Origin: an uncultured virus (IMG/VR IMGVR_UViG_3300026336_000015)
Lineage: Duplodnaviria > Heunggongvirae > Uroviricota > Caudoviricetes
Direction: 5' to 3' (one strand)
Length of the DNA: 20,000 nt
IMG/VR virus record: IMGVR_UViG_3300026336_000015
Made by a program: the position numbers and the translations under genes. Each line of letters opens with the position of its first letter. Position 1 is the first letter of the stretch. This document shows, piece after piece, positions 4,256 through 20,000 of the stretch. A model generated the notes under the pieces. The model had not been told where the DNA came from. It worked only from the letters and a program-made list of their open reading frames with translations, and searched no databases.

Positions 4256-4516
4256 TCATTCGTAATGTGTCCACATGCGCAGGATATGAACAGTTTTTTG
4301 CTCTTCGAGCACATCATAAACAAGCCTGTGCTGGATGTTGATTCTTCTGGAGTAAATTCCTTTTAGATTTCCTACCAGTTTTTCATAGGGCGGCGGGTTT
4401 TGGTAAGGGTTTTGCTCCAGAATGTCCACTAATGCTTTCGCCTTTGGAAGCAGATGCGCGGATTTTAGTTTTTCAAAATCTTTGACAGCCTGCTTTGTCA
4501 AAATGATGTTATACAT
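4256..4516 (-). CDS. yoeB: Txe/YoeB family toxin (ribosome-dependent mRNase)
   Basis: 86 aa; PPPYEKLVGNLKGIYSRRINIQHRLVY...RMWTHYE is the YoeB signature; overlaps the antitoxin by 8 nt. Confidence 0.93.
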   Translation of the reverse strand: MYNIILTKQAVKDFEKLKSAHLLPKAKALVDILEQNPYQNPPPYEKLVGNLKGIYSRRINIQHRLVYDVLEEQKTVHILRMWTHYE

Positions 4517-4763
4517 CCCAATTCAAATCCTTTGCGTTTGTGCCCGCTTGGAGCGGTTCCTTCTGTCCAGCGAGGATACTGTCTGTCATGCCGGGAATGT
4601 TGGACAAATACAACGTTTCCGCAATAGCGTTCCAATCTTCTTCTGAAAGCAAAATTGCGTTGGAAGTTTTGCCTGTGATTTTCACAGGCTCATGGGTTTC
4701 CTGTGTGCGGCTGATTAGGTTATACAAATCTTTCCGTGCATTTGTGACGTTGATGTTTTCCAT
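4509..4763 (-). CDS. yefM: Phd/YefM family antitoxin
   Basis: 84 aa; NVTNARKDLYNLI...HEPVKITGK..NAILLSEEDWNAIAETLYL; SD AAGGAGGG. Confidence 0.93.
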   Translation of the reverse strand: MENINVTNARKDLYNLISRTQETHEPVKITGKTSNAILLSEEDWNAIAETLYLSNIPGMTDSILAGQKEPLQAGTNAKDLNWDV

Positions 4764-4902: not shown

Positions 4903-6075
4903 ATGACGGTACTTACAGAAAAAGGTTTTCAGCGTCCACTTTACGCTGAACTTGTGGCGCAGGCAGAAGCCAGAGCAAAGGTGCTATTTGGTGATGATAT
5001 CGAAACAGACGAAAAAACGCCACTCGGCAAGTTTATCCGGTTGGGCGCGCAGGACATTGCAGAAGCCTATGAAGAATTGGAAAGTGTGTACAACAGTATC
5101 TTTCCCAATACCGCCCGCGGTGCTAGCCTTGACCGTGTGACGGTAACGGCCGGCGTATTCCGAAACCCCGCCATTCCGGCAGAACAGCAAGTAGAATTTA
5201 CCGGCACACCCGGTTATTCAATTCCGGCCGGCTTCCTCGTTTCCGGCAACAGTGTGGAATTCCACACAGAACAGATTGTGACGCTTGGGGAAGATGGAAA
5301 AGCTGCTGCAACTGTGTACGCGACAGAAGCAGGGGAAACCGGGAATGTGCCGGTTGGCGCTATCACTGAAATTGTGAACCCGGATGCAGAAGTCGACAGC
5401 GTGAAGCATACAGCACTTTTGCTGGCCGGACAAGATGAAGAAGTGGATCCTGCATTACGCAGCCGCTATCATGCCGCAGTACTCGGTTCCGGCAGTACAA
5501 CGGCAGATGCAATCCGTGCAGCAGTACTGCGGGTAACCAGTGTGCGAAGCTGTACAGTGATTGAAAATTCCAGTAACGTTACAGATTCCGGTGGCCGTCC
5601 GGGCGGCAGCTTTGAGTGTATTGTTTTTGCCCCTGATTCCCTGAATGATGCAGTCGCACAGGCAATTTTCAATTCCAAGCCGGTTGGCATCAAAGCTTTT
5701 GGTACAACCGAAGTGCAAATAAAGGATAGCAGTGGATACAAGCAGTCAATCTGCTTCACTCATGTTTCCAATAAACTGATTTACGCAAAGGTATCTGTCC
5801 TTACAGACGAAGAATTTCCGGCAGACGGTGAAACACAAATTAAAACGGCATTGTCCAAAACCGTTGGAACTCTCGGAAATGGTGATGATGTCATTTTGAC
5901 GCGTTTATACAGCCCATTGATGGCTATTTCAGGTGTGAAGGACGTTACGCTACTGCAGCTTTCGGCAGATGGAAAGGCCTATACAGCGACTAATATATCA
6001 TGTACGCCTATGCAGGTAGCTGTTTTGCCAACTGATAATGTTACCGTGGAGGTGAGCGCTTATGCCGACCAGTGA
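4903..6075 (+). CDS. Baseplate J / gp47 family wedge protein
   Basis: MTVLTEKGFQRPLYAEL, TARGASLDRV, AGETGNVPVGAITEI, GQDEEVDPALRSRY and KPVGIKAFG motifs; 390 aa. Confidence 0.92.
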   Translation: MTVLTEKGFQRPLYAELVAQAEARAKVLFGDDIETDEKTPLGKFIRLGAQDIAEAYEELESVYNSIFPNTARGASLDRVTVTAGVFRNPAIPAEQQVEFTGTPGYSIPAGFLVSGNSVEFHTEQIVTLGEDGKAAATVYATEAGETGNVPVGAITEIVNPDAEVDSVKHTALLLAGQDEEVDPALRSRYHAAVLGSGSTTADAIRAAVLRVTSVRSCTVIENSSNVTDSGGRPGGSFECIVFAPDSLNDAVAQAIFNSKPVGIKAFGTTEVQIKDSSGYKQSICFTHVSNKLIYAKVSVLTDEEFPADGETQIKTALSKTVGTLGNGDDVILTRLYSPLMAISGVKDVTLLQLSADGKAYTATNISCTPMQVAVLPTDNVTVEVSAYADQ

Positions 6076-7156
6076 CTTAATTCGCAGTTTACCGGATGCC
6101 TACAGCAAGGGCACCAACAGCAATAACTATAAGTTACTGGCACTGCATGGTGAAGCAGTGGACTCGTTTAGGCAGGACATTAAAAATGTTATGTCTTCAC
6201 AAGACCTTCAAACTGCCACCGGCTATTCTCTCGATTTATATGGTGCAGAGGTAGAACAGCCCCGCGGCAAAGCAAACGATGCACTTTATCGGGTATTGAT
6301 TCAGCAGAAGATGGCGCGTGATCGCGGTATTGGTACATGGGACAGCGTATCAAGTGGCATCCGAAACGTTTTGAACTGCTCTGATTCTGATTTTTGCATC
6401 CATGATAGCACTATTAACCGCAAGGTTGTGTTCAGAGTTGTAAACAGTCAGGTACTTGAAAAATCGCCATTAACGGAAGAACAGGTAAAAAAAGTAATCA
6501 ATCAGTTGCTTCCAGCAACAGTAAAATTTGTTGTTGTCGTACCTTACCCAGGAAGTAGCACTTTTGAAATTCATTTTGTTCCGGTACGACTTTCCATACA
6601 CAGCCGCATGAACATTTGGATGATTGATTCTGTCCGCTTGAATGGAGTAAAAAGGCTTGACGGGACATGGACGCTGAATCAGGAAGTACGCAATCATTTT
6701 ATTTTATCTTTATTAAGAATCTCCAGCAGAAAAAGATACAGCCCGACTTTTGTAACCAATGCCCAATATAAGTCGTATGGTTCTGTTCAAGTTATTTCGA
6801 TTCCAAACGGAGTAGAGATTTTTAGCCATCAAGAGGTTAAAAAGTTTAGTTGCCCAGTTCGATTCACTAGCAGGACCGGGCAGCCTTTCAAGGCAGTTGC
6901 GACGGAAAAAGCCCTTTTTTTGTCGCATGAAAATTGGAATAAATCGTCAAAAACAACACCTGAAATTCGCACCTGTACAAAAACGAACCTTACAATGGCG
7001 TGTACAAAATTCGCAGCTCATAGTAAGCAACCAGTTACTATTGAAGAAAAGACAATCAAAAAAACGACAAATCCTGTCTGGACATTAAACGGCGCGTATC
7101 TTATGAATGGTACGCGCCGTTTTAATGCTGGGCAGGTTGTTGAGGAGGTTTTATAA
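6062..7156 (+). CDS. Baseplate wedge I / DUF2612-like protein with extended C-terminus
   Basis: LPDAY...ATGYSLDLYG...RGKANDALYRVLI motif directly after J (14-nt overlap). The C-terminal half carries two LNG/LDG-W-LN motifs. Confidence 0.7.
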   Translation: MPTSDLIRSLPDAYSKGTNSNNYKLLALHGEAVDSFRQDIKNVMSSQDLQTATGYSLDLYGAEVEQPRGKANDALYRVLIQQKMARDRGIGTWDSVSSGIRNVLNCSDSDFCIHDSTINRKVVFRVVNSQVLEKSPLTEEQVKKVINQLLPATVKFVVVVPYPGSSTFEIHFVPVRLSIHSRMNIWMIDSVRLNGVKRLDGTWTLNQEVRNHFILSLLRISSRKRYSPTFVTNAQYKSYGSVQVISIPNGVEIFSHQEVKKFSCPVRFTSRTGQPFKAVATEKALFLSHENWNKSSKTTPEIRTCTKTNLTMACTKFAAHSKQPVTIEEKTIKKTTNPVWTLNGAYLMNGTRRFNAGQVVEEVL

Positions 7157-7546
7157 ATGGCAAGTCAAAACAATGTACTTACGACTGCTTTGCGAGTGCG
7201 CATGGCACAGTTGCTGGCAGGTAAAATTTCCACTATACCGAAGGTAAAATACATGGCTTTCGGGTCCGGTGGATTGGGAACAGACGGAAATCCAAAGCAA
7301 CCGAGCGGCACTGCTACTGCACTTGAAGTTGAGGAAAAGAGATATGAAGTTGGTGAACCAATTTTCCCGGTTGACACTACGGCACGTTTTTCCGCTACCA
7401 TTCCAGAGGCTGACCTTGCAGGCAAAAAGCTGAGTGAGGTTGGCCTTTTTTCGGAAGATAATGTGTTGTACGCGATTCGCAACATGTCACCGAAGCAGAA
7501 AGACAGTGATGAGGAACTGGAATTCACACATGACCTTGAATTTTGA
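7157..7546 (+). CDS. Tail collar/fibre-attachment protein (stand-alone DUF3751-like domain)
   Basis: KYMAFGSGG...TALEVE...LSEVGLF.EDNVLYAIR...K.KDSD.E..F resembles the N-terminal collar domain of myophage tail fibres. Confidence 0.7.
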   Translation: MASQNNVLTTALRVRMAQLLAGKISTIPKVKYMAFGSGGLGTDGNPKQPSGTATALEVEEKRYEVGEPIFPVDTTARFSATIPEADLAGKKLSEVGLFSEDNVLYAIRNMSPKQKDSDEELEFTHDLEF

Positions 7547-7560
7547 CGGAGGTGTGATTG

Positions 7561-7983
7561 ATGGCAAACAGACCGAATTATACGTTGGATGAAAACCCAA
7601 CGTATACCGAAGAAATCCCAGCACTGCAAAATGACGACCCTGCCAGCGCCAGTGATACTTTTAACCCGCTGATTACAAAGATTCTAAACAATCAGAAGGC
7701 AAACCATCAATTGGCACAGAAGGCTAATGACAATGCCGGCGAAGCAGGGCAGGTAGCTGGAAAAGCAATCCCACTGGCACAGAAAGGCGTTGCAAATGGC
7801 GTACCGTCGTTGGATAGTTCTGGCAAAATACCAAAAGCTCAGCTGCCTACTGTCGGCGGCTATGTGCGTCAGTCTTCAGCTCCGAGTGACAGCAGTTTGC
7901 TTTGGATTGACTCTGGCGACAGCAACAAGATGAAATACTACAACGGCAGTTCTTGGGTGCCGGTGCCGGCAACATGGGGGTGA
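7561..7983 (+). CDS. Short tail-fibre-related protein
   Basis: N-terminal DPASASDTFNPLITKILNN fibre-anchor-like motif; KGVANGVPSLDSSGKIPKAQLP and LWID...KYYNGSSW motifs recur in tail fibres; SD GGAGGTG. Confidence 0.65.
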   Translation: MANRPNYTLDENPTYTEEIPALQNDDPASASDTFNPLITKILNNQKANHQLAQKANDNAGEAGQVAGKAIPLAQKGVANGVPSLDSSGKIPKAQLPTVGGYVRQSSAPSDSSLLWIDSGDSNKMKYYNGSSWVPVPATWG

Positions 7984-7987
7984 TTTT

Positions 7988-8695
7988 ATGATGACAGCAA
8001 GCCAGCTTGTCACGCTGAAAACAAACGTTGACAAGGAAATGAAGCGCCGCTGCTACAACGGCAGTATGACCGCCTATGCTGGCAGCAGTTACGCATTTCA
8101 AACTGCTCCTGCGGCAGGCGGAGTGATAAAAGCTCAGCAGGGCAATGCCGTGATTCAGCCGCTCAATGCGGTCAATCCAATCAGTGGGCTTTCGACTGCC
8201 GCCGCCGGGGAAGTTATTCCCACGACCTTTGACAATGACAAACTCGCGAAAGTAGTCAATGACCTGTCCAACCTGACGACGACCACATCAAACCCCGGCT
8301 GCGCAGCATCCTGCTCCGGCCTGTGTCACACGCAGTGTAGTACCTCATGTACTGGATGCAGTGGGTGTTCCTCGTGCTCATCCTGTACCGGCACATGTTC
8401 AGCGTGCTCTAATGGATGCAGCACGTGTACTAGCTGCACCAATTCCTGTGCGACCGGTTGCGCAAATACTTGTGCTACAGTATGTGACAATGGGTGTAGA
8501 GGATGTTCTGGAAGTTGCACAGGCGGATGCTATGGCACGTGCTGGGATACTTGTTCAGGCTGCGGTGGCTGTACGGGTTCACAAAATACTAGTCCTGGTT
8601 CGGGGTGTGGGAATTATTGTAATGGAACTTGTTCTAGTAGTTGCGGGTCTTGCACTGGTTGTTCGGGTTCTCATACAGTACATGATGCACATTGA
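7988..8695 (+). CDS. Cys-rich CxxC/CxxxC-repeat protein; putative radical SAM modification target
   Basis: ~104-aa non-repetitive N-domain, then 32 Cys spaced almost always every 3-4 residues (Cys105 onward, nt 8300-8695) among Ser/Thr/Gly/Asn; adjacent to an rSAM/SPASM gene. Confidence 0.85.
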   Translation: MMTASQLVTLKTNVDKEMKRRCYNGSMTAYAGSSYAFQTAPAAGGVIKAQQGNAVIQPLNAVNPISGLSTAAAGEVIPTTFDNDKLAKVVNDLSNLTTTTSNPGCAASCSGLCHTQCSTSCTGCSGCSSCSSCTGTCSACSNGCSTCTSCTNSCATGCANTCATVCDNGCRGCSGSCTGGCYGTCWDTCSGCGGCTGSQNTSPGSGCGNYCNGTCSSSCGSCTGCSGSHTVHDAH

Positions 8696-8711
8696 CTTTT
8701 TAGGAGGCAAA

Positions 8712-9023
8712 ATGATTAAAATTAAAATATCGAAAGAATTATCGGACTACATCGAAAGCTTACAGTTCGAGGTCAACCGGACAAAAGAAATAGTGGCGTT
8801 TATGCTGAGCAGCCCCGGCTATGATACTCACACGAACACATTTGCACAGTGGGAAAAAGATAACCAGGAAGCATATGCAAAACTGTGCCTTGCAAAAAAC
8901 AAGTTGGAGCACGAGGTTATTCCGAAACTGCTGCCGAAGGACACAGGAGCAGTTCGCTCTTGGAGTCTGGATTTTTACACACATGAAGTAATAGTGGAGG
9001 TAGCGGATGCGCAGAAGGATTGA
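8712..9023 (+). CDS. CXXX-repeat peptide modification system accessory protein (TIGR04116-like)
   Basis: ATG 8712 with SD AGGAGG; 103 aa, helical, ending WSLDFYTHEVIV. This resembles the W-x-[IL]-D-F-x-T-x-E C-terminus I recall for that family. Overlaps the rSAM gene by 17 nt. Confidence 0.68.
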   Translation: MIKIKISKELSDYIESLQFEVNRTKEIVAFMLSSPGYDTHTNTFAQWEKDNQEAYAKLCLAKNKLEHEVIPKLLPKDTGAVRSWSLDFYTHEVIVEVADAQKD

Positions 9024-10323
9024 AGAATATCCGGATATGCTTGCAAGACTTTTCCCACAGCCTTATGACGGCAACCCAGCAGACAAACACCTTGCCCGCA
9101 CGATTACCTTTCAGGTAACGGATGCCTGCAACCTGTGCTGCAGCTATTGTTATCAGATACATAAGCAGCACCATGTGATGGATTTTGATACGGCAAAGGC
9201 TTTTATCGACCTGCTGCTGGATGATAATAACCCGTACATCAACACCAAAAACAGTCCCGGTGTCATTATCGAGTTCATCGGCGGCGAGCCGTTCCTTGCC
9301 ATTGATGTAATTGACAAGATTACAGATTACTTTATCGACCAGATGATTCGCCGCCGCCATCCGTGGGCAAAGCGGTTCATGATTTCTATCTGTTCAAACG
9401 GTGTGCTGTACTTTGAACCGAAGGTACAGGCGTACCTGAAAAAGCACCTGAGCCACCTGAGTTTCAGCGTCAGCATTGACGGCAACAAGCAGCTGCACGA
9501 TTCCTGCCGTGTGTTCCCTGATGGCAGCGGAAGTTATGATAAAGCAATTCAGGCGGTGCAGCATTTCCGCACCGAGCTCCACAGTGACATGGGCAGCAAA
9601 ATGACGTTGGCTCCGGCCAATATCCGCTATACTTGCGATGCAGTAAAAAATCTGATTGCGCTCGATTACAATCAGATTTTTTTAAACTGCGTCTATGAAA
9701 AAGGCTGGACGGTAGAACACGCGAAAATCCTGTACCAACAGCTGAAGCAGCTTTCTGATTATCTGCTGGACAACGATTTGGAAGATGAAATCTACCTGTC
9801 CATATTCGAGGAGTTTATCGGGCACCAGATGGCGCCAGACGATAACGACAACTGGTGCGGCGGTACCGGGTACATGATTGCAGTGGACTATAAGGGCGAT
9901 ATTTTCCCCTGCCTGCGGTACATGGAAAGCAGCTTGGGCGAGGGTGTGCCGCCGGTCATTATCGGCAATGTGCAGGACGGTATTATGGCGACGCCCGGCC
10001 AGTGCGACTGCGTGCGCTGCATGAAATGCATTACCCGCCGCAGTCAGAGCACGGATGAGTGCTTTAACTGCCCGATTGCGCAGGGGTGTGCTTGGTGCAG
10101 CGCCTACAATTATCAGGAGTTTGGCACCATGAATCACAGGGCAACGTACATTTGCGAGATGCACAAGGCGAGAGTGTTGGCAAATGTGTATTTCTGGAAC
10201 AAAAAGTACCGGAAGCACGGAGAAAACAAGGTATTCCACAACAATGTCCCGGAAGCGTGGGGACTGCGGATTATCGATAAAAATGAGCTGGATATGCTCA
10301 ATAATCTTTCAAAGGAGTCTTGA
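9007..10323 (+). CDS. Radical SAM/SPASM peptide maturase, CXXX-repeat target family (TIGR04115-like)
   Basis: CNLCCSYC (CxxxCxxC), FIGGEP, SVSIDG; SPASM region CGGTG...VDYKGDIFPCLRY...CFNCPIAQGCAWC...C; SD GGAGG. Confidence 0.9.
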   Translation: MRRRIEEYPDMLARLFPQPYDGNPADKHLARTITFQVTDACNLCCSYCYQIHKQHHVMDFDTAKAFIDLLLDDNNPYINTKNSPGVIIEFIGGEPFLAIDVIDKITDYFIDQMIRRRHPWAKRFMISICSNGVLYFEPKVQAYLKKHLSHLSFSVSIDGNKQLHDSCRVFPDGSGSYDKAIQAVQHFRTELHSDMGSKMTLAPANIRYTCDAVKNLIALDYNQIFLNCVYEKGWTVEHAKILYQQLKQLSDYLLDNDLEDEIYLSIFEEFIGHQMAPDDNDNWCGGTGYMIAVDYKGDIFPCLRYMESSLGEGVPPVIIGNVQDGIMATPGQCDCVRCMKCITRRSQSTDECFNCPIAQGCAWCSAYNYQEFGTMNHRATYICEMHKARVLANVYFWNKKYRKHGENKVFHNNVPEAWGLRIIDKNELDMLNNLSKES

Positions 10324-10325
10324 AA

Positions 10326-10640
10326 ATGGCAGAAATCAAGTATGTAAAGTTTGCAGACGCGGCAGTTATCGAAGCAACGCAGGTCTCGGAAAGCATTACT
10401 GATATGAATGGAACCAAGACAGATCAGTTACTTATTCAGATTGACACTGACAGCACAGAAAACCAGACTGCTGAACTGCAGACAAAAATTACAGATGCCG
10501 GCCTGAAAGATGTCAACATTTTTGCTGACAAGGAGTGCACCAATAAAATCTTTGCTGGTGGTGCTTACAAATCTGTCCTCAGCATCACTGCGACAGTGCG
10601 TGCCTGCGGGTTGCTGTACAGCGTATCGCTGTCGAAGTAA
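10326..10640 (+). CDS. Hypothetical protein (104 aa)
   Basis: SD AAGGAG 8 nt before ATG 10326; packed between the rSAM stop and the lysin; no motif recognised. Confidence 0.7.
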   Translation: MAEIKYVKFADAAVIEATQVSESITDMNGTKTDQLLIQIDTDSTENQTAELQTKITDAGLKDVNIFADKECTNKIFAGGAYKSVLSITATVRACGLLYSVSLSK

Positions 10641-10652
10641 GGCGGTGTGAAT

Positions 10653-11837
10653 ATGAGTTACAAAGGAATTGACGTCAGTTACTGCAACGGCCGTGTGGAC
10701 TGGGCGAAAGCCAAAGCTGCCGGTTTGCAGTTTGCCGTCCTCCAACTGGGGTATGGCAGCGACAGCACATCACAGGACGACGTACAGTTTGCGCGTAATG
10801 TAAGTGAGTGTGAGCGCCTCGGGATTCCCTGGGGCGCTTATTTATATAGCTACGCGCAGACAGTGAGCGGCGCGCAGAGTGAACTGCAGCATATGCTCCG
10901 GCTGCTGCGCGGCCATCATCCACAGTACCCGGTGTTTATTGACATGGAGGACGCAGACGGATACAAGGCAAAGCACGGCGGCATCCCATCCAGAGAAACC
11001 AATACAGCAATCATCAAGGCTGTGTGCAGCGGCCTGCAAAATGCTGGATACAAGGCAGGCTATTACGTCAATAAGGACTGGTACGAGAACAGAATTTCCC
11101 CGGCGCAGCTGTCGGCATATGAATTTTGGTATGCACGGCCGGGTGTGTCTGCACCGGACAAGTACTGCGATATTTGGCAGTCAGAGTTTGGTGAGGATTC
11201 CGGCAAGTGGCCGGGAGCAAACATTCCCGGCAAGGGCTGTGACACGAATGTGTGCTATACCAATTATGGTGTAAACAGCAATGGCACACCCGCTGTCCGG
11301 ACGCTGCCGGCACTTGCACCGGCCGGGGCAGCATTTGTCAGTGACACCAATACCGCCGTACCGCTCAAACACGGACAGTCCTACACGGTTAAGGTTACCT
11401 GTTCGGCCGGTCGGCCGTCGCTGGCAGCAGGCACCGGCGGCACGGTAAACATCACATATCAGAATTGCAGTGGGAATAACTACTGCTTCAAACTGACTGC
11501 AACCGGAAAAGTGGGAGCTGAAACCGGCATCTACATTAACGGTCACAAGCCGTCTACTATGGTGGTGCGAATTGTCACCGCCTGCAGCAGTGATACGACC
11601 GTCAACCTGTCCCGCAAGGTGGGGGAGTGTTACACGGTCGGGCTTACCAGCCCCACGAAGCCAACCGTCACAGCCGGAACCGGCGGAATTGTAACGATTG
11701 CCGGTGTGTACGCGGATGGATCCGGCAAGTGGCTGTGTCCGATTGTGGCTGTGCATCCGGGTGCCACGGGAATCTACACCGAAGTTGCAGGTGAAGGAAG
11801 TCCGGTGAAGCGTTTTGAATTTGCGGTCACTGAGTAA
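10653..11837 (+). CDS. Endolysin: GH25 muramidase plus two ~83-aa C-terminal repeat domains
   Basis: KGIDVSYCNGRVDW, GAYLYSYA and FIDMED (DxE catalytic) motifs; tandem SDT...YTV...AGTGG...TGIY repeats. Confidence 0.9.
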   Translation: MSYKGIDVSYCNGRVDWAKAKAAGLQFAVLQLGYGSDSTSQDDVQFARNVSECERLGIPWGAYLYSYAQTVSGAQSELQHMLRLLRGHHPQYPVFIDMEDADGYKAKHGGIPSRETNTAIIKAVCSGLQNAGYKAGYYVNKDWYENRISPAQLSAYEFWYARPGVSAPDKYCDIWQSEFGEDSGKWPGANIPGKGCDTNVCYTNYGVNSNGTPAVRTLPALAPAGAAFVSDTNTAVPLKHGQSYTVKVTCSAGRPSLAAGTGGTVNITYQNCSGNNYCFKLTATGKVGAETGIYINGHKPSTMVVRIVTACSSDTTVNLSRKVGECYTVGLTSPTKPTVTAGTGGIVTIAGVYADGSGKWLCPIVAVHPGATGIYTEVAGEGSPVKRFEFAVTE

Positions 11838-11850
11838 AGGAAGGGAGGAA

Positions 11851-12294
11851 ATGAAAAATGTAGCAGATACATATAATGCGCTCGTGGGCGGGGTGATTGC
11901 ATTCTTTACCATGATTTTCGGCGAGCATTGGATTTTGTTCGCCGCTTTTTTGTTCCTGAATGTGATTGACTGGCTGTCCGGATGGTCGAAAGCCCGCAGG
12001 GTGCACAAGGAAAGCAGCAGCGTTGGCCTGAAAGGAATCGTCAAAAAGGTTTGGTACTGGGTAATCATTGCGATTGCCTTTATCCTTCCGGCGGCGCTCA
12101 TGGAAGCTGGCAGCGTGATTGGCGTCGATTTGTCAATTACCCGATTCCTCGGCTGGCTGACGTTGGCAATGCTCCTAGTGAACGAGGTCCGCAGTATCAT
12201 TGAAAACCTTGTATGTCTTGATATCCCAGTGCCGGAGGTACTGATTAAGGGGCTTGCAATCACTGACAAAATTTTGCAGGACACACAGAAATAA
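11851..12294 (+). CDS. Holin, phage holin family 4 type
   Basis: Three hydrophobic segments; IDWLSGWSKA...SSSVGLKGIVKK...NEVRSIIENL...IPVP..L motif; SD GGGAGG. Confidence 0.9.
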   Translation: MKNVADTYNALVGGVIAFFTMIFGEHWILFAAFLFLNVIDWLSGWSKARRVHKESSSVGLKGIVKKVWYWVIIAIAFILPAALMEAGSVIGVDLSITRFLGWLTLAMLLVNEVRSIIENLVCLDIPVPEVLIKGLAITDKILQDTQK

Positions 12295-12321
12295 AATCAA
12301 CAAAAAATGGAGGTACTTATT

Positions 12322-12801
12322 ATGGAACTTACAGTAGCAGTAATCATTTTCGCAGGTACAGCAATTATTTTCGGTGTCGGTTTTTGCATTGAAAAGGCAA
12401 AAAACGTAGGCAAAGGGAAACAGGTAGCTGAGGGTTTTGACAAAGCAGAAAAGGTTGTTGATGCTGTTGATGCGGCGGCAAATATTGCAGCGACCGTGGC
12501 GCCCAGTCCGGTTACGTCTACGTTCAAAGGCATTGCCGACCGCGCGGACGTTTCGACCAAAGCTGCAGAGCAACTGTATTTGAACGGCAGCATTACTGCA
12601 GATCAGCGCAAGGAGGAAGCAAAAACAATTTTAAAGCAGGCTCTTGGATTGGATGGCATTGCCTATGAAGGTGATGTATCTGAGCTTGGCAACAAAGCAA
12701 TTGAAGCCGCCGTTTATGCGTTGGACAAGACCGGCACGAAAAAGGCTGCCAATACAATAGAGACAGCACAGACCACTAAACCAGCAACGCAGACCGCATA
12801 A
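12322..12801 (+). CDS. Second holin-like protein (LL-H family-like)
   Basis: Single N-terminal TM, then AAEQLY...RKEEA...GI...IEAAVY motifs typical of LL-H holins; SD GGAGGT before ATG 12322. Confidence 0.62.
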   Translation: MELTVAVIIFAGTAIIFGVGFCIEKAKNVGKGKQVAEGFDKAEKVVDAVDAAANIAATVAPSPVTSTFKGIADRADVSTKAAEQLYLNGSITADQRKEEAKTILKQALGLDGIAYEGDVSELGNKAIEAAVYALDKTGTKKAANTIETAQTTKPATQTA

Positions 12802-12824: not shown

Positions 12825-12869
12825 AACGACCCTGACTTCACCATTACGGTGAAGTCAGGGTCGTTTTTT
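12825..12869 (+). terminator. Late-operon rho-independent terminator
   Basis: Perfect 18-bp stem AACGACCCTGACTTCACC/GGTGAAGTCAGGGTCGTT, 5-nt loop and T-tract, right after the lysis genes. Confidence 0.9.
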
Positions 12870-12927: not shown

Positions 12928-13515
12928 CTAACAGTTTACAATCTTACATTCGATATACTTGTGCAGTATTGGTGAGGATAATACTTGAAGCCTAGTATTA
13001 GGGCAAAAAATGACTTCATTTTCATGCATATCGGAAATCAAGTCAACATATACGCATGGTGTACCTTTAGAAACATATATTTTCAATACCCTATAATAAT
13101 TCTGAGTGTAACTGTGACCCAGCACTGTGCTTGGAGTTAGCGTTGTACTGAGAAATGCTTTGTCATAAATTATACTGCCTTTTCTGATTATGTGAATGCC
13201 GCTCCACCTTTTCATTTTCCTAAATATAGGTTTATTCACATATCTATAAACAATAATATTTTGAGTACATGGATGCCTTCCAATTTCATTTATTACCAGC
13301 GAAATAGTGTTTTTAGTATTTGATCTTATATCGTTTTTTTGAAATCCTAAAAGATTATTATATATATAGTGAATACCTTGAGTATAATATCTAAAAAAGC
13401 ATCCCACAGGTTTGGATGGTCGAATGTTCTAGTTTTGCATTTTTAGCAGCCAGTTGCCAAAATTTTTCTTACCCCATTCTGCGGCTTCTTTATCAGAAAA
13501 ATCTCTATAGCACAT
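12928..13515 (-). pseudogene. C3/VIP2-like (R-S-E class) ADP-ribosyltransferase with in-frame TAG at codon 29
   Basis: ATG 13515 with SD AGGAGG reads MCYRDFSDKEAAEWGKKNFGNW...QN*NIRPSKPVGCFF, in frame with the listed 159-aa ORF. Motifs IVYRY, FLSTT and ENEVIF. Stop at 13429-13431. Confidence 0.78.
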
Positions 13516-13681: not shown

Positions 13682-15289
13682 TTACCCAAGCAAATATTCG
13701 CAAACAGCGGCTACAGCAGCATTTTTTATTTGTCTTGCTCGAACATCAGCAATATACCGAGCTTCTTTTAATTTGCTTTCTTGAATGTCGATTAAATCGC
13801 CAATAGTTTGTATATTAAGTTCATGAAGTTTGCCCTTTTGCCAAGAGGTCAAATCAAGCGTATCAATGCTTTTTCCAAATTGTTTCATTATTGTTGCATT
13901 TCCTGTAGGATCTATTACTGTTCCTTTGAGAGAATTAAATGAAGAATAGTTACTTCCGTATTCGGTCATTTTTTTAATGCTCAAACGTTTTGCAATGGAA
14001 TATGCAGTTGTTGTGGGAACTGATTCTTTTGCGAATAAGCATCCTTCGTTGACTTCATAGCGTGAACCTATTTCGCTACGGGTTGCTCTTATGCCCGAAG
14101 AATGCTCACTTATAATTCCCGTGTATTCTAATAAACGCAATGCCTCTTTTACCTCTTGGGGTGCATTCCTATGGACCCAGAAAAAAGAACTTGTAGCTCC
14201 CATGTTTTCTTTTTGTGCGGTTGCTTTATCATTTTTTGATTTAATTTCTGGTATGACTTCTGTTTCAATAAAGTCTCGTCCCCAGTCAATAAGTTTCGCA
14301 TACCCAGGATATTTATCAGATAAATTAGAGTGCTCAGCCCAAAGAGATCCTGTATAATACTCACGAATTACTTTGTTAATTGCAAAAGAATCCAGTTTCC
14401 CTGCCATTTCCACAGTTTTGAGCAAATGCCTTGGGTTTCCTCCAGAGGCATATGCAAGAATTGAAAAGTTTTGCCCACGTTTTGATAAAGTTGCTGATAA
14501 GGTACTATCTTTTGCCTGCCGTAGTACCATTCCTTTCATCATTTCAACGTAGTTAGCATCAGTAGTTGATCGATTTAGGGTAATTCGTACAGCGTCATGA
14601 AGTGGTTCAAAAGTATCTCCATATACAGTAACCCCAGGATACACCGCAGCGTTACATTTTATATAAGGAGATCGTAGGTCTCTAAACAGTGTAAAAAATT
14701 CTCTTTGCTGTTGTGGATAAAATACATGTGCAGCCTCATCTATAAAAAGAACAATTCGTTTAATATCAAGTTCTTCACACAAATCCTGAACAACATTGAT
14801 AAAAGTATCTAATGATGGAACTCTTGAATCATCGATTATTGTTCCAGGAGTTTTCCACGATGACTCAAAAAGTTCTGTTACTTCTTCTAATTCGGATTTT
14901 TCTGGCTTTACGGTCGCTCCAAGCAATAATCCCAAACTATAATTAATAGTAGCAAGTTTCCCACGTTTTCTTAAGGCTCGTTGCAATTCTGAGCAAATTT
15001 TTGAAAGCATCCATGATTGAAATTGATTGGTATTTCCTGATTGAAGAAGAGCTGCCTTACGAAAAGTAATAAAGACAGGAAGAATTTTATTAGTGTCAAA
15101 GCTGTCATCTAGTTGTGATTCGGCGACACGAAATAAAAATGACTTTCCAACGCCACGGCTACCAACCAGCAGGATTGGCGTTTTAGATTTCAGTTTACAA
15201 ATTATTTCTTCATCAGCAGGTGTTCCTACAAATAAATCTTTTATTTGTTCAGAATCCATTTCTTCTGTCCGATATATAAATTCACCCAT
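13682..15289 (-). CDS. P-loop ATPase (ORC/CDC6/STAND-like) with C-terminal RNA-polymerase alpha-CTD-like/HhH domain; candidate defence protein
   Basis: Walker A GSRGVGKS, Walker B LFIDEA, GGNPR sensor-like motif. C-terminus IDTLDLT...LHELNIQTIGDL...IADVRARQI resembles alpha-CTD. Confidence 0.75.
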   Translation of the reverse strand: MGEFIYRTEEMDSEQIKDLFVGTPADEEIICKLKSKTPILLVGSRGVGKSFLFRVAESQLDDSFDTNKILPVFITFRKAALLQSGNTNQFQSWMLSKICSELQRALRKRGKLATINYSLGLLLGATVKPEKSELEEVTELFESSWKTPGTIIDDSRVPSLDTFINVVQDLCEELDIKRIVLFIDEAAHVFYPQQQREFFTLFRDLRSPYIKCNAAVYPGVTVYGDTFEPLHDAVRITLNRSTTDANYVEMMKGMVLRQAKDSTLSATLSKRGQNFSILAYASGGNPRHLLKTVEMAGKLDSFAINKVIREYYTGSLWAEHSNLSDKYPGYAKLIDWGRDFIETEVIPEIKSKNDKATAQKENMGATSSFFWVHRNAPQEVKEALRLLEYTGIISEHSSGIRATRSEIGSRYEVNEGCLFAKESVPTTTAYSIAKRLSIKKMTEYGSNYSSFNSLKGTVIDPTGNATIMKQFGKSIDTLDLTSWQKGKLHELNIQTIGDLIDIQESKLKEARYIADVRARQIKNAAVAAVCEYLLG

Positions 15290-15294
15290 AGATG

Positions 15295-16011
15295 TCAGTC
15301 TCCATTTCTGCCATATAGTAATTGAATTTCTGGTAACATTCCTATGTTATGCATTATCGCATTTTCTAATGTCGGTAACAAGTCTTCACGAATAATTAAT
15401 TCTTTGAATCGAATAACAAGGGCTATGGATAATAAATAGGAGATGCTTTGAAAGCCGGAGGTGTATTTCCTTAACATATCTTGACTAAACTCGTTTTGGC
15501 CCGGCAGACAGTTTAACTTGCTGTAATTACCATGTATGTACTCGGAACATTCTCGATACACATTACTTGTAATGCTGTTTAGCTCTGCACTTCGATCTTC
15601 AAATTCTGGAGCATATGCACGGATAAAAGATTTACTAAAGATACCAGTATTGCTGTCAGTGATAGTTGCCCACTTCATGTCTTCATGTCCAGATTTCCAT
15701 CGTCTAAAGTAGAAGTCATTTGAGGACATATGAATACCATATAAACAGTGTTCCAAACATAACCGTAAAGAAATCATTGAATGTTTATACAATCCCTGGC
15801 AGCAAAACAGGTTTGCTGTTGCGCATTCATTCAAAGAGGAAAATAATAGTATTGATTGCGGAATATCTTTGAGACAAGTTACCCATGTCCTAAAGTCATT
15901 CACAAATAGGAAACATTGATTTAAACTTTTTGCCTGGGGAGACCTCCATGTTGCGGATATTTGTGTTTTCATCCCTTCTAAAATTGCAAATTGCTCTTCT
16001 TCGTTATTCAC
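15295..16011 (-). CDS. Helical HEPN-like protein; candidate effector/partner of the ATPase
   Basis: 238 aa; GLYKHSMISLRLCLE and VYRECSEYIHG motifs reminiscent of HEPN-like families; stop 5 nt before the ATPase ATG; GTG start uncertain. Confidence 0.55.
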   Translation of the reverse strand: MNNEEEQFAILEGMKTQISATWRSPQAKSLNQCFLFVNDFRTWVTCLKDIPQSILLFSSLNECATANLFCCQGLYKHSMISLRLCLEHCLYGIHMSSNDFYFRRWKSGHEDMKWATITDSNTGIFSKSFIRAYAPEFEDRSAELNSITSNVYRECSEYIHGNYSKLNCLPGQNEFSQDMLRKYTSGFQSISYLLSIALVIRFKELIIREDLLPTLENAIMHNIGMLPEIQLLYGRNGD

Positions 16012-16573
16012 TATTTACACTTTCCTTCATTAATAATAATCTGTCAAAATTTGAGTCAAATTACTCCTTTGAACTTCGTATAATTGCTGAGCTGATGTGA
16101 AAACACAAAAATTTTCAAGGCAGTGATGCGTTATCCCATAAAAGAACGGAAATTTTAATATGATTGGTGATAATGTTTTACTTTTCATCAGTAAATAGCA
16201 TTAAAATGGAGATTCAAAAAATAAGTACTTTATTTTCACATAGCCTGTGCTATAATTTACATCTGACTAGTAAGTTCATTATGCAAAATTGAAATACTTA
16301 TGGTCCTCAGTGTTTTAGCAAATAGCCGAAAATACTTTACAACAATAAACCATTATTTACATTTTACCACTGGAAATTGTTTCTTTCAACTTTTTATTAT
16401 ATTACGGAGTTTGCATTGGCTGACAGTACCTCGATAAAAGTGGTAGCCAGTGACTTGCCATTTATTGCACCAGTAAAGCACACCGGATATCCGGTTGGGG
16501 CAGTAGATTATTGGAACATTGCAAAGGCAGCCGAAATACGCGAACGTACAAAGATCAAACTCAAATGATAAAT

Positions 16574-16619
16574 GTCTCTGACTTCTCACTCATAAGGTGA
16601 GAGGTCAGGGACGCTTTTT
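16574..16619 (+). terminator. Rho-independent terminator
   Basis: 17-bp stem with three G-U pairs, loop CATAA, followed by GCTTTTT. Confidence 0.75.
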
Positions 16620-16631
16620 GTATGTATATAA

Positions 16632-16663
16632 TTGTAAATTTCACCAAACTGTGATATTATAAT
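16632..16663 (+). promoter_or_regulatory. Putative sigma-A promoter for 16698-18398
   Basis: TTGTAA-17 nt-TATTAT with a TGn extension, plus an overlapping TATAAT at 16658-16663. Confidence 0.5.
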
Positions 16664-16697
16664 TTCAATTACTAATTGTTTTAAGAAGGAAAAGAGA

Positions 16698-17333
16698 ATG
16701 GAAGCTATAATTGCAGCTATAATTGCAGCGGTAGTCTCTTGCACAATAGCCTTAGTTTCGAATCACATAATTGCGCGGGGTCAAAAAATTCAGACAAATG
16801 AATTTTATGTGCAACTCAACAAGCAGCAAGAGCAGTTTGAAACACAGCTCAAAATGCAACAGACACAGCATATTGAATCTATAAGAGAACAAGTACGCCC
16901 GTTCTTTTGCATAAAATCAATTAGGGCGGTATATGAAGATAAATCTCTAGTATTTACAATGGTTTTTAAAAATGTTGGAAACGGAGTGGCGATAAATATT
17001 GTGGAAGTCTACCCATATAAAGAGAAGGTAGGATGTATGTATTCTCATAAATATGGGGACAAAATAATACATTATGATTGTTATTTACCAATCGATTATG
17101 AATCAAACTGTGCACCAATTAATGAAACATGTCAAGTTGAAATTATCCAAAAGGAAAAAACAATTTTTTCAAATATTAATACTGATCAAATTAAATTCGG
17201 ACTGGTTTTTCAAGATATAGAAGGTAATGAATATCAGCAAAAGTTTAGTTTCTATTTTAACGATAAAGCCTGTGATGGAAAAGAAATGAAGTTTTATAGG
17301 GTATATAATTACATACCACAACTACGCCAATGA
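16698..17333 (+). CDS. Hypothetical membrane-anchored protein
   Basis: N-terminal hydrophobic helix, Gln-rich coiled segment, then RPFF...FKNVGNGVAINI beta-rich domain; SD AAGGA; AT-rich. Confidence 0.75.
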   Translation: MEAIIAAIIAAVVSCTIALVSNHIIARGQKIQTNEFYVQLNKQQEQFETQLKMQQTQHIESIREQVRPFFCIKSIRAVYEDKSLVFTMVFKNVGNGVAINIVEVYPYKEKVGCMYSHKYGDKIIHYDCYLPIDYESNCAPINETCQVEIIQKEKTIFSNINTDQIKFGLVFQDIEGNEYQQKFSFYFNDKACDGKEMKFYRVYNYIPQLRQ

Positions 17334-17492
17334 AAGAAAATTTTAAACGTTCCTTTTCACCAATAAGTGGATATTGGTTTACAGTTCCAATCATCATGTA
17401 AATGTCCGTATAGTTCAAGCAAATATTTCTACTTCATAAATTTCGAAACGCGACGGTATACATCATTTGTTTTCATGGTTAGAGGTGTTAAT

Positions 17493-18398
17493 ATGGCCAA
17501 TAGAATTCCCGAATGGAAAGAAGAATATGATGATATTATTTTAAATCATCCAGAGCATATAGGAAAGGCTATAGAATTAAAGAACAAAAATATGCCTCAG
17601 CACTTATATAAATATTATTCAATTAGTAAAGAAAATGACTATTGGAAGAAGCCACTACAAGAAAAATTAATATATCTTTCACGACCACAAGAATTTAATG
17701 ACCCTTATGATTGCTCTATAAAAATCGACAATGACGAAGTAATGAAAAATACGGATAGGTTTGCCTGCGAAAAATTACTCAAAGATTTTGTAAAACATCC
17801 TTCTGCTGTAGAGAAAAACAGAATAAAATTCGCCAATAATCCATTTGAAGCATTAATTACGGATCTAAAGAGACGAGGGACTATTTCTCAAAAAGTTGAC
17901 GAAAAAGAAGTTTCAAAAATTAACAAAGAAAGAGAAATGAATTTTTCGGAATTTTCCAAAGATTATATCAGGGTGGCATGCTTTTGTGAGAAAAATAATC
18001 CTCTCCTAATGTGGAGCCATTATGCACATAATCATGAGGGGTTTTGTATAGACTGCAGTTTCAACGAGCCACTATGTGCAAGCATCTATCCTGTTACATA
18101 TTCAAACATAAGGCGAGATTACACAGAAAGTGTAAAAAGTAGTACAAAAGAATGGACATACGGTAGCTTTTTGTGTAAAGCAGAAGATTGGAGTTATGAA
18201 AGGGAATGGCGTGTGATTTCACCTTATAGGAAAATTCCATATTTCGAAAGTTCGCAATGCATAAGAGCTATTTATTTGGGTGCAAAAATTTCTCAAGAAA
18301 ATGAAGGAAAAATCATGGAACTTTCCGGAGATATTCCAGTTTACAAAATGCAACTTGCCAAGGATACATATAATCTGTATCCAGTAAGAATTAAGTAA
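17493..18398 (+). CDS. DUF2971 domain protein
   Basis: LYKYY, FNDPYDC, CFCE...LMWSHYA..HEGFCI, K..DWSYEREWR and IYLG motifs; SD GAGGTG before ATG 17493. Confidence 0.85.
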   Translation: MANRIPEWKEEYDDIILNHPEHIGKAIELKNKNMPQHLYKYYSISKENDYWKKPLQEKLIYLSRPQEFNDPYDCSIKIDNDEVMKNTDRFACEKLLKDFVKHPSAVEKNRIKFANNPFEALITDLKRRGTISQKVDEKEVSKINKEREMNFSEFSKDYIRVACFCEKNNPLLMWSHYAHNHEGFCIDCSFNEPLCASIYPVTYSNIRRDYTESVKSSTKEWTYGSFLCKAEDWSYEREWRVISPYRKIPYFESSQCIRAIYLGAKISQENEGKIMELSGDIPVYKMQLAKDTYNLYPVRIK

Positions 18399-18480
18399 TT
18401 ACTTGTTAAGTAATTATATTCCGAAATGTGGATTAAAGCAGCGGAAATCGGTTATGCTCTTACACAAGGAGTAAGAGCAT

Positions 18481-18657
18481 ATGATAAAAATTTTACTGTC
18501 CCGCAAGCTGGGCGAGCTTCGCTGGACACAGGCCGACCTTGCGCGAGCGACCGGCATTCGAGCAGCAACCATCAATGCACTGTATAATGAAGTGGCAGAC
18601 CGGGTTAACCTGGACCACCTTAGCAAGATTTGTGAATTAGTGAATATTGTGACCTAA
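18481..18657 (+). CDS. Xre/Cro-C1 HTH regulator, probably C-terminally truncated (58 aa; absent from ORF track)
   Basis: MIKILLSRKLGELRWTQADLARATGIRAATINALYNEVADRVNLDHLSKICELVNIVT*; SD AAGGAG at 18466-18471. Confidence 0.8.
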   Translation: MIKILLSRKLGELRWTQADLARATGIRAATINALYNEVADRVNLDHLSKICELVNIVT

Positions 18658-18790
18658 GGTCCAAATAAAGTTTTACCATTGGAAGCAAAATAGAGAAGTG
18701 AAATATAAATTAAAATTGCTCCTAGCTTTTCACGCGGGTTTCAGGGGCACTTGTCAATTACCTGTTTTTAATTGCATATAAAAGAAACAT

Positions 18791-18837
18791 AAAAACATCC
18801 CTCGCTTTAACCGTTGCCGGAAAAAGTGGGGGATGTT
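18791..18837. terminator. Probable terminator hairpin downstream of the S53 gene
   Basis: Imperfect inverted repeat AACATCCCTCGCTTT/AAAGTGGGGGATGTT with a flanking A-run (U-tract on the minus strand). Confidence 0.5.
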
Positions 18838-18860
18838 AAGTTCTAAAAAGATATGTAAGA

Positions 18861-20000
18861 TTAGAGTAGTGGTAGTAATTTATCCGCTTTTGGGCTACCT
18901 AATCCCGTAACAAAATCGTACCCTTGTGACGCATTGTTCCCATTGGAGCCGGAAACGACATCATAAAATGCATTTTGGGGATTTGTATAAGATGTTCCAC
19001 CTGCCAGTTTATAAAGAACCTGATTTGCACCGCTAAGTGCAGAATAATTATCACCATCCGCAATTAGGCCAGCCCAAGCTGGTGCCGAAAGACTTGTACC
19101 TCCTACTTCGGACCATCCACTTGAACCATTATAATCAATGCTGCTGTAAACAGCTACTCCTGTATTGGGATCGGCATCAAAGGAAACATCCGGTGTTCCA
19201 CGCATTCCATTGCTGGATATTCTCATGTTCGTTTGCCATGCTGGCTCATTGATATACTGACTAATATCACCGCCAGAAAGGTTCCATGCAGTTTCACTTG
19301 TACGATGATTAGAGGAATCCAATTTTAATGTTGTTCCTCCCACTGCAACTACTTTTGAAGAAGTAGCTGGCCAGGATGACTGTGCACCATCATCACCTGC
19401 TGATGCGAGATATACGACCCCAGAGTGTGAAAAATTAGAATCCAGTGAACTTTCTCGCCGTGATTCATTACCACCCCAACTCATTGAAACAACCTGTGCC
19501 GAATGGTTATTGGCATACTGGATAGCATTTAATAAATCTTGTGTTGAAGCAGATTTTGCAGCAATCACTAGCAAATTCGCATCAGGTGCCATAGCATGTG
19601 CCCATTCCACATCCAAGGCCGTTTCCAAGGCCCATCCACCGTCAGTGCTTGTTGGTTTTCCCTGTGGGTATGAAACACTGATATTCTTTGGTGCACTCAA
19701 TCCAAACCTTTGATCAAAGACGTTCAAATCATTTTCGATATTACTGTCCCCATAGGCATCCACGATCGCAATCGTTTCGCCTGCTCCACGCTTAGATTGG
19801 GCATTAACTCCATAAGCGGTACGAAGCTGTTCTGGGGAATATCCATTCACATATGTAGCTGTCGGGCGAGTTTTCACTTTTAGCATGGAATGCATTGTTC
19901 CATCCAAAGTTCCATGTGCATAGCCAGCCGTTGTAGAACCCACTAAAACCGCTACACTTAGAACGAAAGTCGCCAAGGATTTCAGTTGTTTGTTTCTCAA
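18861..20000 (-). CDS. Secreted S53 (sedolisin/kumamolisin) family serine protease
   Basis: Signal-peptide-like N-terminus; ETALDVEW (Glu/Asp), SAGDDG (oxyanion Asp), GGTSLSAP (Ser) and GYDFVTGLGSP Ca-site. The start lies at the window edge, so it is unverified. Confidence 0.9.
   Translation of the reverse strand: MRNKQLKSLATFVLSVAVLVGSTTAGYAHGTLDGTMHSMLKVKTRPTATYVNGYSPEQLRTAYGVNAQSKRGAGETIAIVDAYGDSNIENDLNVFDQRFGLSAPKNISVSYPQGKPTSTDGGWALETALDVEWAHAMAPDANLLVIAAKSASTQDLLNAIQYANNHSAQVVSMSWGGNESRRESSLDSNFSHSGVVYLASAGDDGAQSSWPATSSKVVAVGGTTLKLDSSNHRTSETAWNLSGGDISQYINEPAWQTNMRISSNGMRGTPDVSFDADPNTGVAVYSSIDYNGSSGWSEVGGTSLSAPAWAGLIADGDNYSALSGANQVLYKLAGGTSYTNPQNAFYDVVSGSNGNNASQGYDFVTGLGSPKADKLLPLL

Follow-up and report, generated by a model that had tools for sequence, protein, structure and literature searches.

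We analysed a stretch of 20,000 nucleotides from an uncultured virus of the class Caudoviricetes (hereafter the window), which is the minus strand, bases 210-20209, of the 40.5-kb IMG/VR virus record IMGVR_UViG_3300026336_000015, estimated to be 73% complete. Four tightly packed genes at 7988-10640, all on the + strand, were found between short fibre genes and an endolysin gene. They encode a 235-amino-acid (aa) protein with a regular ladder of cysteines, which is the presumed target of modification (7988-8695), a 103-aa accessory protein (8712-9023), a 438-aa radical SAM/SPASM maturase (9007-10323), and a 104-aa protein counted from its ATG (10326-10640, with an in-frame TTG at 10320). The first three of these genes represent a predicted maturation module of phages of anaerobic Bacillota, located inside the tail-fibre/lysis end of the late operon. 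A preliminary description, made from the letters of the window, had reported four co-oriented genes with overlaps or gaps of 16 nt or less and no visible promoter or terminator. We verified the open reading frames (ORFs) and flanks and found the same order and orientation, with a Shine-Dalgarno sequence 5' of each gene. The gaps were 4 nt from the end of the fibre gene at 7983 to the target start at 7988, 16 nt from the target end at 8695 to the accessory start at 8712, 2 nt from the maturase gene to the 104-aa gene, and 12 nt from there to the endolysin ATG at 10653. All four gaps are within the reported limit, while the overlap between the accessory and maturase ORFs, at 17 nt, exceeds it. 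A consensus scan detected no promoter-like site on the + strand between 2985 and 11239, and inside the cassette it found short chance-level stems only, with no strong terminator before 12825-12865. The GC content of the cassette (0.47-0.51) equals that of the late genes and is unlike that of the AT-rich stretch at 12.9-18.5 kb. The sequence is thus consistent with membership in the late operon, as had been proposed.

The cysteine ladder of the target protein extends from C105 to C225 (8300-8662), as delimited by cysteine spacing, composition and the alignment of relatives. In the run of 26 cysteines that was scored (residues 105-195), 60% of the Cys-to-Cys spacings were i+4 and 40% were i+3, which is far beyond chance. 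Across targets of the same type from other phages (hereafter the phage type), the spacings were i+4 in 77% and i+3 in 22%, and the ladder was composed of 27% Cys, 23% Gly, 18% Ser, and 11% Thr. The ladder is preceded by an N-domain (residues 1-104; 7988-8299) that is specific to the phage type and predicted to be helical, with an AlphaFold2 (AF2) predicted local distance difference test score (pLDDT) above 90 over residues 1-100. At the junction lies the motif C-x3-C-[ST]-G-[LM]-C-x3-C (8300-8338). Its five defining positions (C105, C109, G111, C113, and C117) were invariant in an alignment of 53 sequences, and the motif was present in all 48 of the 48 diverse phage-type targets. The targets of relatives ranged from 141 to 827 aa in length. 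Tandem Repeats Finder detected no tandem repeat at the DNA level in the ladder gene, and recent slippage therefore does not account for the variation in ladder length.

Single-sequence scans of the window target against Pfam, NCBIfam, and PHROGs returned no match even at E 10. Its relatives match phrog_6085 and TIGR04114/PF27846. The preliminary description had named TIGR04114 as a partner family of the enzyme. The window target itself does not reach TIGR04114; the L001 homologue scored 21.3 bits (cut-off 20), and PF27846 (tSAM_targ_Cxxx_rpt) is present in the precomputed annotation of the close homologues P0002-P0004 and P0010. A hidden Markov model (HMM) of the N-domain matched in 100 of 163 loci. 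Used alone, the N-domain profile retrieved 572 clusters at 50% identity among 1.84 billion representatives. Among the best 150 of these 572 clusters, 95 had a clear ladder, 37 were fragments, and 18 were others; these 18 included 5 short ladders, at least 4 out-of-frame ladder readings, and at least 2 assembly chimeras. Because no recurrent alternative partner domain was seen in the best 150 clusters, the N-domain appears tied to the ladder. Structure searches with the N-domain gave no further lead: the best VIA wide match (Z 5.3, root-mean-square deviation (rmsd) 3.9, 80 aligned) was at the noise level for helical models, a search of BFVD found three uncharacterised virome homologues only, and matches in the ESM Atlas were all below threshold.

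The maturase gene starts 311 nt 3' of the target gene. The encoded enzyme matched the NCBIfam family TIGR04115 with 463.7 bits (cut-off 350, E 5.3e-139) over model positions 1-359 of 359, and phrog_1802 with 243.8 bits. This agrees with the initial classification as a maturase of the CXXX-repeat class. The CX3CX2C motif of the radical SAM cluster (C41, C45, and C48; 9127-9150) was invariant in an alignment of 57 sequences, as were seven cysteines of the SPASM region (C284, C302, C352, C355, C361, C364, and C383; 9856-10155). By these comparisons the enzyme is a TIGR04115 maturase in which every predicted cluster-binding cysteine is intact. The next-best families were PapB (NF047865; 173.5 bits), SCIFF (TIGR03974; 110.1 bits), and QhpD (TIGR03906; 105.5 bits), and anaerobic sulfatase maturases were detectable relatives at 66.3 bits. 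Assignment of the enzyme to PapB (cut-off 340), SCIFF (425), QhpD (453) or the anaerobic sulfatase maturases was rejected, as all scores were below the cut-offs. The closest solved structure was CteB (5wgg, E 1.8e-20). The alignment starts at CteB residue 91, and the window enzyme therefore does not have the N-terminal ~90 residues of CteB, which we take to be its peptide-recognition (RRE) domain.

Several variants of the enzyme gene were observed among relatives. In two of them, intein-like inserts were located exactly at SPASM cysteines. One, in L057:4825-7212, is ~320 aa long, has a LAGLIDADG-type motif and interrupts the gene at the position corresponding to C284; the other, in L093:7001-8710, is ~130 aa long and lies at the position corresponding to C364. 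Inteins are often retained where a phage cannot do without the gene, and their position suggests that the enzyme matters to the phage. The maturase ORF was found to be split in relatives L023, L044, and L050.

The accessory gene starts 5 nt after an AGGAGG sequence. Its product had no match in single-sequence scans of NCBIfam, Pfam, and PHROGs even at E 10, which includes the TIGR04116 HMM (cut-off 50 bits). Profile-profile comparison by hhalign, in contrast, aligned the accessory profile with the TIGR04116 profile over 91 columns (94.8%, E 5e-8), including a common C-terminal W-x-[LI]-[DN]-F motif. The TIGR04116 partner named in the preliminary description is therefore recovered as a distant homologue by hhalign and missed by the HMM, which matched 1 of 39 phage-type accessories, at E 0.046; a jackhmmer search from a true TIGR04116 member recruited no phage-type accessories. 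An ORF of ~100 aa ending at the maturase start was present throughout the phage-type loci. The AF2 model of the accessory protein (pLDDT 93.7) consists of a strand, two long helices and a beta-hairpin, and fold searches, which bear on a conceivable RRE-like role, gave generic helical-hairpin matches only, none of them specific (best Z 7.5, rmsd 3.1, 69 aligned). One natural fusion, P0014, carries an N-domain, a ladder of 30 cysteines and a TIGR04116-like accessory in a single 334-aa protein. Several lineages encode, between the ladder gene and the accessory gene, an additional protein of 171-203 aa without a library match (L001:7107-7715, L054:6072-6629, L034:6119-6676, L045:6165-6680, and L082:6080-6691), which could be a further part of their system.

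The fourth gene had been counted as a member of the cassette, and on this point the comparison led to a different view. Homologues of the 104-aa protein directly after the maturase were found only in the window and in L004, L037, L040, L041, and L084, with weak matches in L095 and L057. In close relatives the protein is 77-95% identical. No match was found in NCBIfam, Pfam or PHROGs even at E 10, and the ESM Atlas gave nothing usable. By its distribution, the 104-aa gene is a clade-limited associated gene outside the conserved core.

To place the module among other phages, viral contigs and bacterial genomes were searched for the enzyme. A first scan of viral contigs with the window enzyme alone found nothing. 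A second scan with an alignment of three enzymes identified relatives on 248 contigs, of which we used the best 80. A ladder ORF, co-oriented and within ~2 kb of the enzyme, was present in 76 of these 80 viral loci, and the other 4 are truncated or split loci. Together with the ~100-aa helper described above, this shows the ladder protein, the TIGR04116-like helper and the enzyme as a predicted functional set that occurs paired. Clustered at 85% identity, the viral enzymes fell into 30 groups, a number that includes the window and two groups of phage records. We annotated the flanks with PHROGs for one locus per enzyme group. By our own reading, 27 of the 28 representatives that are neither the window nor of the classical type described below show, within 5.5 kb and on the same strand, a match to tail or virion-structural proteins, and L037 does not; for L077 the tail match is the Pfam Peptidase_G2 IMC domain and not a PHROG. 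In the usual viral layout, a baseplate J gene and a fibre gene lie directly 5' of the module, and lysis genes or more fibre genes lie 3'. The module was found in both myovirus-type and siphovirus-type (tape measure-Dit) backbones, and in L001, L082, and L009 it is followed by further fibre or tail genes.

Some of these loci have additional features. A second, pure-ladder protein is present in several loci. In L036, two ladder proteins (L036:6287-6997 and L036:8301-9068) flank the maturase, and their non-ladder domain is C-terminal instead of N-terminal and was missed by the N-domain HMM. The commonest viral group (22 loci) is represented by L060, which encodes a reverse transcriptase (L060:11792-13069; phrog_1423, E 3.1e-76) ~3.5 kb 3' of the maturase, with two large proteins of no known function encoded in between. 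A diversity-generating retroelement that targets a neighbouring fibre gene is one possible interpretation.

Bacterial genomes provide a cleaner test of linkage, because viral contigs are rich in tail genes anyway. At least 547 loci were found in GTDB genomes, and the best 80 were used. Among loci of the N-domain type, 23 of 25 had phage tail or lysis homologues within 7 kb, and the two misses were contigs of 2.4 and 3.4 kb. In contrast, no such neighbours were found within 7 kb in any of the 46 loci of the classical type, which occurs in Bacteroidales, where the target bears a TAT-type signal and the enzyme gene is accompanied by a TIGR04119-like gene, a TIGR04116-like gene or both. In a quick maximum-likelihood tree, the classical enzymes formed one clade on a long branch (100% SH-aLRT, branch length 1.31), with the phage type outside. 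A TIGR04119-like ORF was detected in 47 loci, which were all classical or untyped; the phage-type loci, the window included, had none. In three classical loci (L111:6953-9073, L119:1166-3328, and L156:209-2407), the TIGR04115 enzyme and a TIGR04119-like SPASM maturase are fused in one ORF of ~700-730 aa. An association of homologous cassettes with tail loci had been set beforehand as a test of the initial interpretation, and it was observed in both censuses. Comparison of the loci thus shows the putative module beside tail or fibre genes in many unrelated phage backbones.

We then compared the ladder proteins with each other. In L083, the ladder is combined with two ALK_LTK_GRD domains, which also occur in a paralogue in the preceding fibre region. 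P0100 has an N-domain, a module of the host-range or adsorption type and a ladder (phrog_5499, E 2.5e-14; phrog_1330, tail, E 7.8e-12; and a weak CBM_4_9 match). P0038 has an N-domain, a ladder and a C-terminal globular part of ~180 aa, and in P0076 and P0124 extra domains precede the N-domain. Judged by these arrangements, the ladder proteins are modular as fibres are. The N-domain is also less likely to be a cleaved leader, because in P0100 the adsorption-type module lies between the N-domain and the ladder, and P0076 and P0124 have domains in front of the N-domain. When 11 close relatives were aligned, residues 1-125 were nearly invariant and the C-terminal module was conserved, while residues 126-200 differed in both sequence and length, with the cysteines alone kept. 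In four metagenome loci whose maturase is 92-97% identical to that of the window, identity was only 45-71% in the middle of the ladder and 48-69% in the 141-aa fibre protein encoded upstream, and one lysin may be exchanged for another among these loci. This mosaic of a conserved enzyme with a variable ladder middle and fibre resembles what is expected of host-range determinants.

The + strand of the window carries a late module of the contractile-tail type. Its genes follow the order tape measure end, LysM/XkdP-like, baseplate hub, gp25-like wedge, baseplate J (4903-6075), and a second baseplate protein (6062-7156). Directly downstream is a 129-aa protein that resembles the N-terminus of tail-collar fibres (7157-7546; phrog_5417, E 2.5e-15; phrog_1780, tail collar fibre, E 1.8e-8), with a weak match to PF12571 (22.1 bits against a gathering cut-off of 23). 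It is followed by a 141-aa short fibre or minor-tail protein directly 5' of the target (7558-7983; phrog_1446, 3493, 7389, and 14726, all of the tail category). Downstream of the baseplate genes, the tail module of the window contains no other large or variable candidate for a receptor-binding protein. On the 3' side, a GH25 endolysin (10653-11837; PF01183, 65.4 bits; phrog_291, E 7.7e-38) is followed by a holin (11815-12294) and a holin-like protein (12307-12801), with matches to phrog_199 (E 3.3e-17) and PF09682 (25.7 bits) in this pair. Directly 3' of this last late gene of the + strand, the consensus scan placed a strong intrinsic-terminator-like hairpin at 12825-12865, with an 18-bp stem, 10 GC pairs and a T-run.

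Other genes of the window lie outside this series. A Phd/YefM antitoxin (4509-4763) and a YoeB/ParE-type toxin (4256-4516) are encoded on the minus strand inside the string of baseplate genes. The pair has its own sigma-70-like promoter at 4816-4788, matching at 12 of 12 positions, and appears to be a self-contained insert, so that the contrast drawn in the preliminary description between the cassette and a toxin-antitoxin moron was sound. Just beyond the late-operon terminator, at the start of the AT-rich stretch (GC 0.30-0.39), a 159-aa ORF on the minus strand (12928-13407) has an ADP-ribosyltransferase exoenzyme domain (PF03496, 45.2 bits). The AT-rich region at 13682-20000 encodes an ORC/CDC6-like AAA protein (13682-15289, minus strand), a 238-aa unknown protein (15295-16011, minus strand), a 211-aa unknown protein, a DUF2971 protein (17367-18398, + strand; phrog_1762), and a subtilase (18861-20000, minus strand). 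This region might represent an island of defence or cargo genes located at the phage's end.

The CXXX-repeat peptide modification system was reportedly defined by bioinformatics by Haft and Basu in 2011. It comprises the TIGR04115 maturase, targets of TIGR04114, TIGR04117 or PF27846, and the TIGR04116 and TIGR04119 proteins. The phage module shares with it an enzyme above the family cut-off, a target that is likewise a ladder with a cysteine at every fourth residue and the same composition, and a helper distantly homologous to TIGR04116. It differs from the classical form in having no TIGR04119, in having a ~104-aa N-domain and an invariant junction motif in place of the TAT-type signal peptide, in the position of the helper directly 5' of the enzyme, and in its phage tail setting (the 23 of 25 loci against 0 of 46 given above). 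The enzyme family and the bacterial gene cluster are thus already known as bioinformatic definitions, and the target architecture, the gene set and the biological setting are new here. In the literature searched, we found no description of a phage version, a tail-fibre link or the biochemistry of the TIGR04115 system, in agreement with the earlier statement that no characterised phage system of this kind was known.

Characterised enzymes and assemblies offer partial parallels. PapB and CteB form Cys thioethers within repeated short motifs. PapB, a ranthipeptide/freyrasin maturase, is the best-scoring characterised family for the window enzyme, and CteB, a SCIFF maturase, is the closest solved structure; their substrates, however, are short peptides with leaders, whereas the window-type targets have 141-827 aa. 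In quinohemoprotein amine dehydrogenase, QhpD joins Cys to Asp/Glu residues of one subunit through thioethers. By analogy with QhpD and QhpC, a SPASM enzyme may cross-link a protein that is kept in a larger assembly and not a small secreted peptide, but the window enzyme is far from the QhpD cut-off (105.5 bits against 453), acidic acceptors are scarce, and dozens of sites would be involved, as opposed to the three of QhpD. The label "RiPP-type" (for ribosomally synthesised and post-translationally modified peptides) used initially is loose: unlike classical leader-core systems, the targets are full-size proteins, some with additional domains that flank or separate the N-domain and the ladder, the window module has no protease or exporter, and the enzyme is without the N-terminal region of CteB. 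In the HK97 capsid, autocatalytic isopeptide bonds form a chainmail. The phage module may resemble it in that covalent cross-links would strengthen a virion component. In HK97 the reaction is self-catalysed in the capsid, whereas the phage module would rely on a distinct enzyme, sensitive to oxygen and consuming SAM, that modifies a tail appendage before the particle is assembled or in the course of assembly.

We propose that the ladder protein is part of a tail fibre that is stapled by the enzyme. In this proposal, the helper and the enzyme would act on the ladder late in infection, in the anoxic and reducing cytoplasm, and would install many covalent links. By analogy with PapB, CteB, and QhpD, these would most likely be thioethers from Cys sulfur to carbon. 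The links would convert a Gly/Ser/Thr-rich, otherwise structureless stretch into a rigid rod that is proof against reduction. The rod would form the distal shaft or tip of the tail fibre and would be retained in the virion, where the hypervariable non-Cys positions, or the fused adsorption modules of relatives, could contact the host surface. The N-domain would be retained after maturation and serve for anchoring or oligomerisation, with docking of the enzyme as a possible further function. The overall interpretation of the preliminary description is supported by the comparative evidence, and we regard the full proposal as having a somewhat better than even chance of being correct. A broader form of it is that strict-anaerobe phages use a new fibre material, a chain stapled at every third or fourth residue into a laddered rod whose free positions evolve to retarget the phage. 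We put this forward tentatively, as rather less than an even bet.

Several observations weigh against the stapled-fibre proposal. Incorporation of the ladder protein into the virion, its modification and its late expression are predictions. In the Pfam and PHROG scans, the window target has no detectable likeness to any known fibre domain, and a Foldseek search of the PDB with the N-domain gave nothing at E 0.001 or better. The AF2 pLDDT over the ladder is ~40, and thus no rod structure is predicted. Asp and Glu are scarce in the ladder (D 2.5%), and the acceptor chemistry of PapB, with its Cys-X3-Asp/Glu motifs, and of QhpD therefore cannot be the predominant reaction. Modification would be slow if each chain required dozens of radical SAM turnovers. 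The module of the window lies at the boundary of fibre and lysis genes, where cargo is commonly carried. In the non-phage sister system the target is exported by way of a TAT-type signal peptide, and the ancestral product is thus not a part of a virion. Eight RNA runs, all in the form of contigs, matched (shares of at most 0.23); the pieces, from four of them and up to 547 nt long, are uninformative on level, strand, and timing, and uncovered parts carry no meaning. In both censuses, annotation was transferred within BLAST clusters, ORFs were called greedily, and the best 80 loci each were used.

These points bear differently on the alternatives. The modified Cys-rich protein could act outside the particle, released at lysis or intracellular, as an antimicrobial, a signal, a metal binder or a counter-defence factor, with the late operon serving for timing only. 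The exported, non-phage product of the Bacteroidales system, the membership of the enzyme family among peptide maturases, the position of the window module and the absence of likeness to fibre domains all agree with such cargo. However, no signal peptide, protease or exporter gene was found in or beside the module of the window by library scans and in the ORF list, targets can be as long as 827 aa and occur fused with domains of the adsorption or fibre-region type, and in L001, L082, and L009 fibre genes lie on both sides of the module. Unlike the toxin-antitoxin pair of the window, it has no promoter or terminator of its own, and its linkage to tail genes persists across unrelated backbones. 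We therefore consider cargo unlikely. It is also conceivable that the ladder protein, with or without a metal or Fe-S cluster, is a fibre assembly factor or scaffold that assists folding or attachment of the upstream fibre before being discarded, or that another tail protein is the substrate of the enzyme. Genes just 3' of fibre genes often encode fibre chaperones, the target is small (235 aa), and its Cys-rich composition could bind metals. A hypervariable middle and fusion to adsorption-type modules would nevertheless be unexpected for a chaperone, and the ladder is the most probable substrate, given that TIGR04115 enzymes are accompanied by ladder proteins outside phages as well. This explanation appears quite unlikely to us.

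The remaining alternatives concern the chemistry and the integrity of the module. The ladder protein could have the same role with a different modification, such as oxidation of Cys to residues of the formylglycine type, which anaerobic sulfatase maturases carry out, or the formation of different C-S or C-C bonds. The scarcity of acidic acceptors and the detectable relationship to sulfatase maturases would fit this, and no characterised TIGR04115 member was found in the literature searched. Since the closest families and the closest solved structure are all formers of Cys thioethers (PapB, SCIFF/CteB, and QhpD), we assign such a chemistry a low probability. Finally, the split maturase ORFs of three relatives could indicate that the module is a decaying remnant, non-functional in the window phage. 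In the window, however, all four ORFs are intact with ribosome-binding sites, every invariant catalytic cysteine is present, and close relatives keep the enzyme at 92-97% identity, which makes decay very improbable.

If the stapled-fibre proposal is true, it would be the first case of enzyme-installed, radical SAM-dependent covalent cross-linking of a virus particle, and it would join radical SAM peptide-maturation chemistry to virion assembly. The laddered rod would be immune to the reducing cytoplasm and the gut, where disulfides cannot help, and such an enzymatically stapled, redox-proof rod could interest protein engineers. The uncharacterised TIGR04115 family would receive its first biological role, and a large enzyme family, encoded in at least 248 viral contigs and more than 547 genome-contig stretches, would gain a testable function. 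The module is known in prophages of cultured strains, for example Eubacterium pyruvativorans i6 (L089) and Desnuesiella massiliensis mt10 (L094), so that the question can be tested directly. The receptor-binding proteins of phages of gut anaerobes of the Oscillospiraceae and Lachnospiraceae type are poorly known. The ladder protein would provide a compact, hypervariable determinant of host range in the phages of Oscillospiraceae, Lachnospiraceae, and related gut anaerobes.

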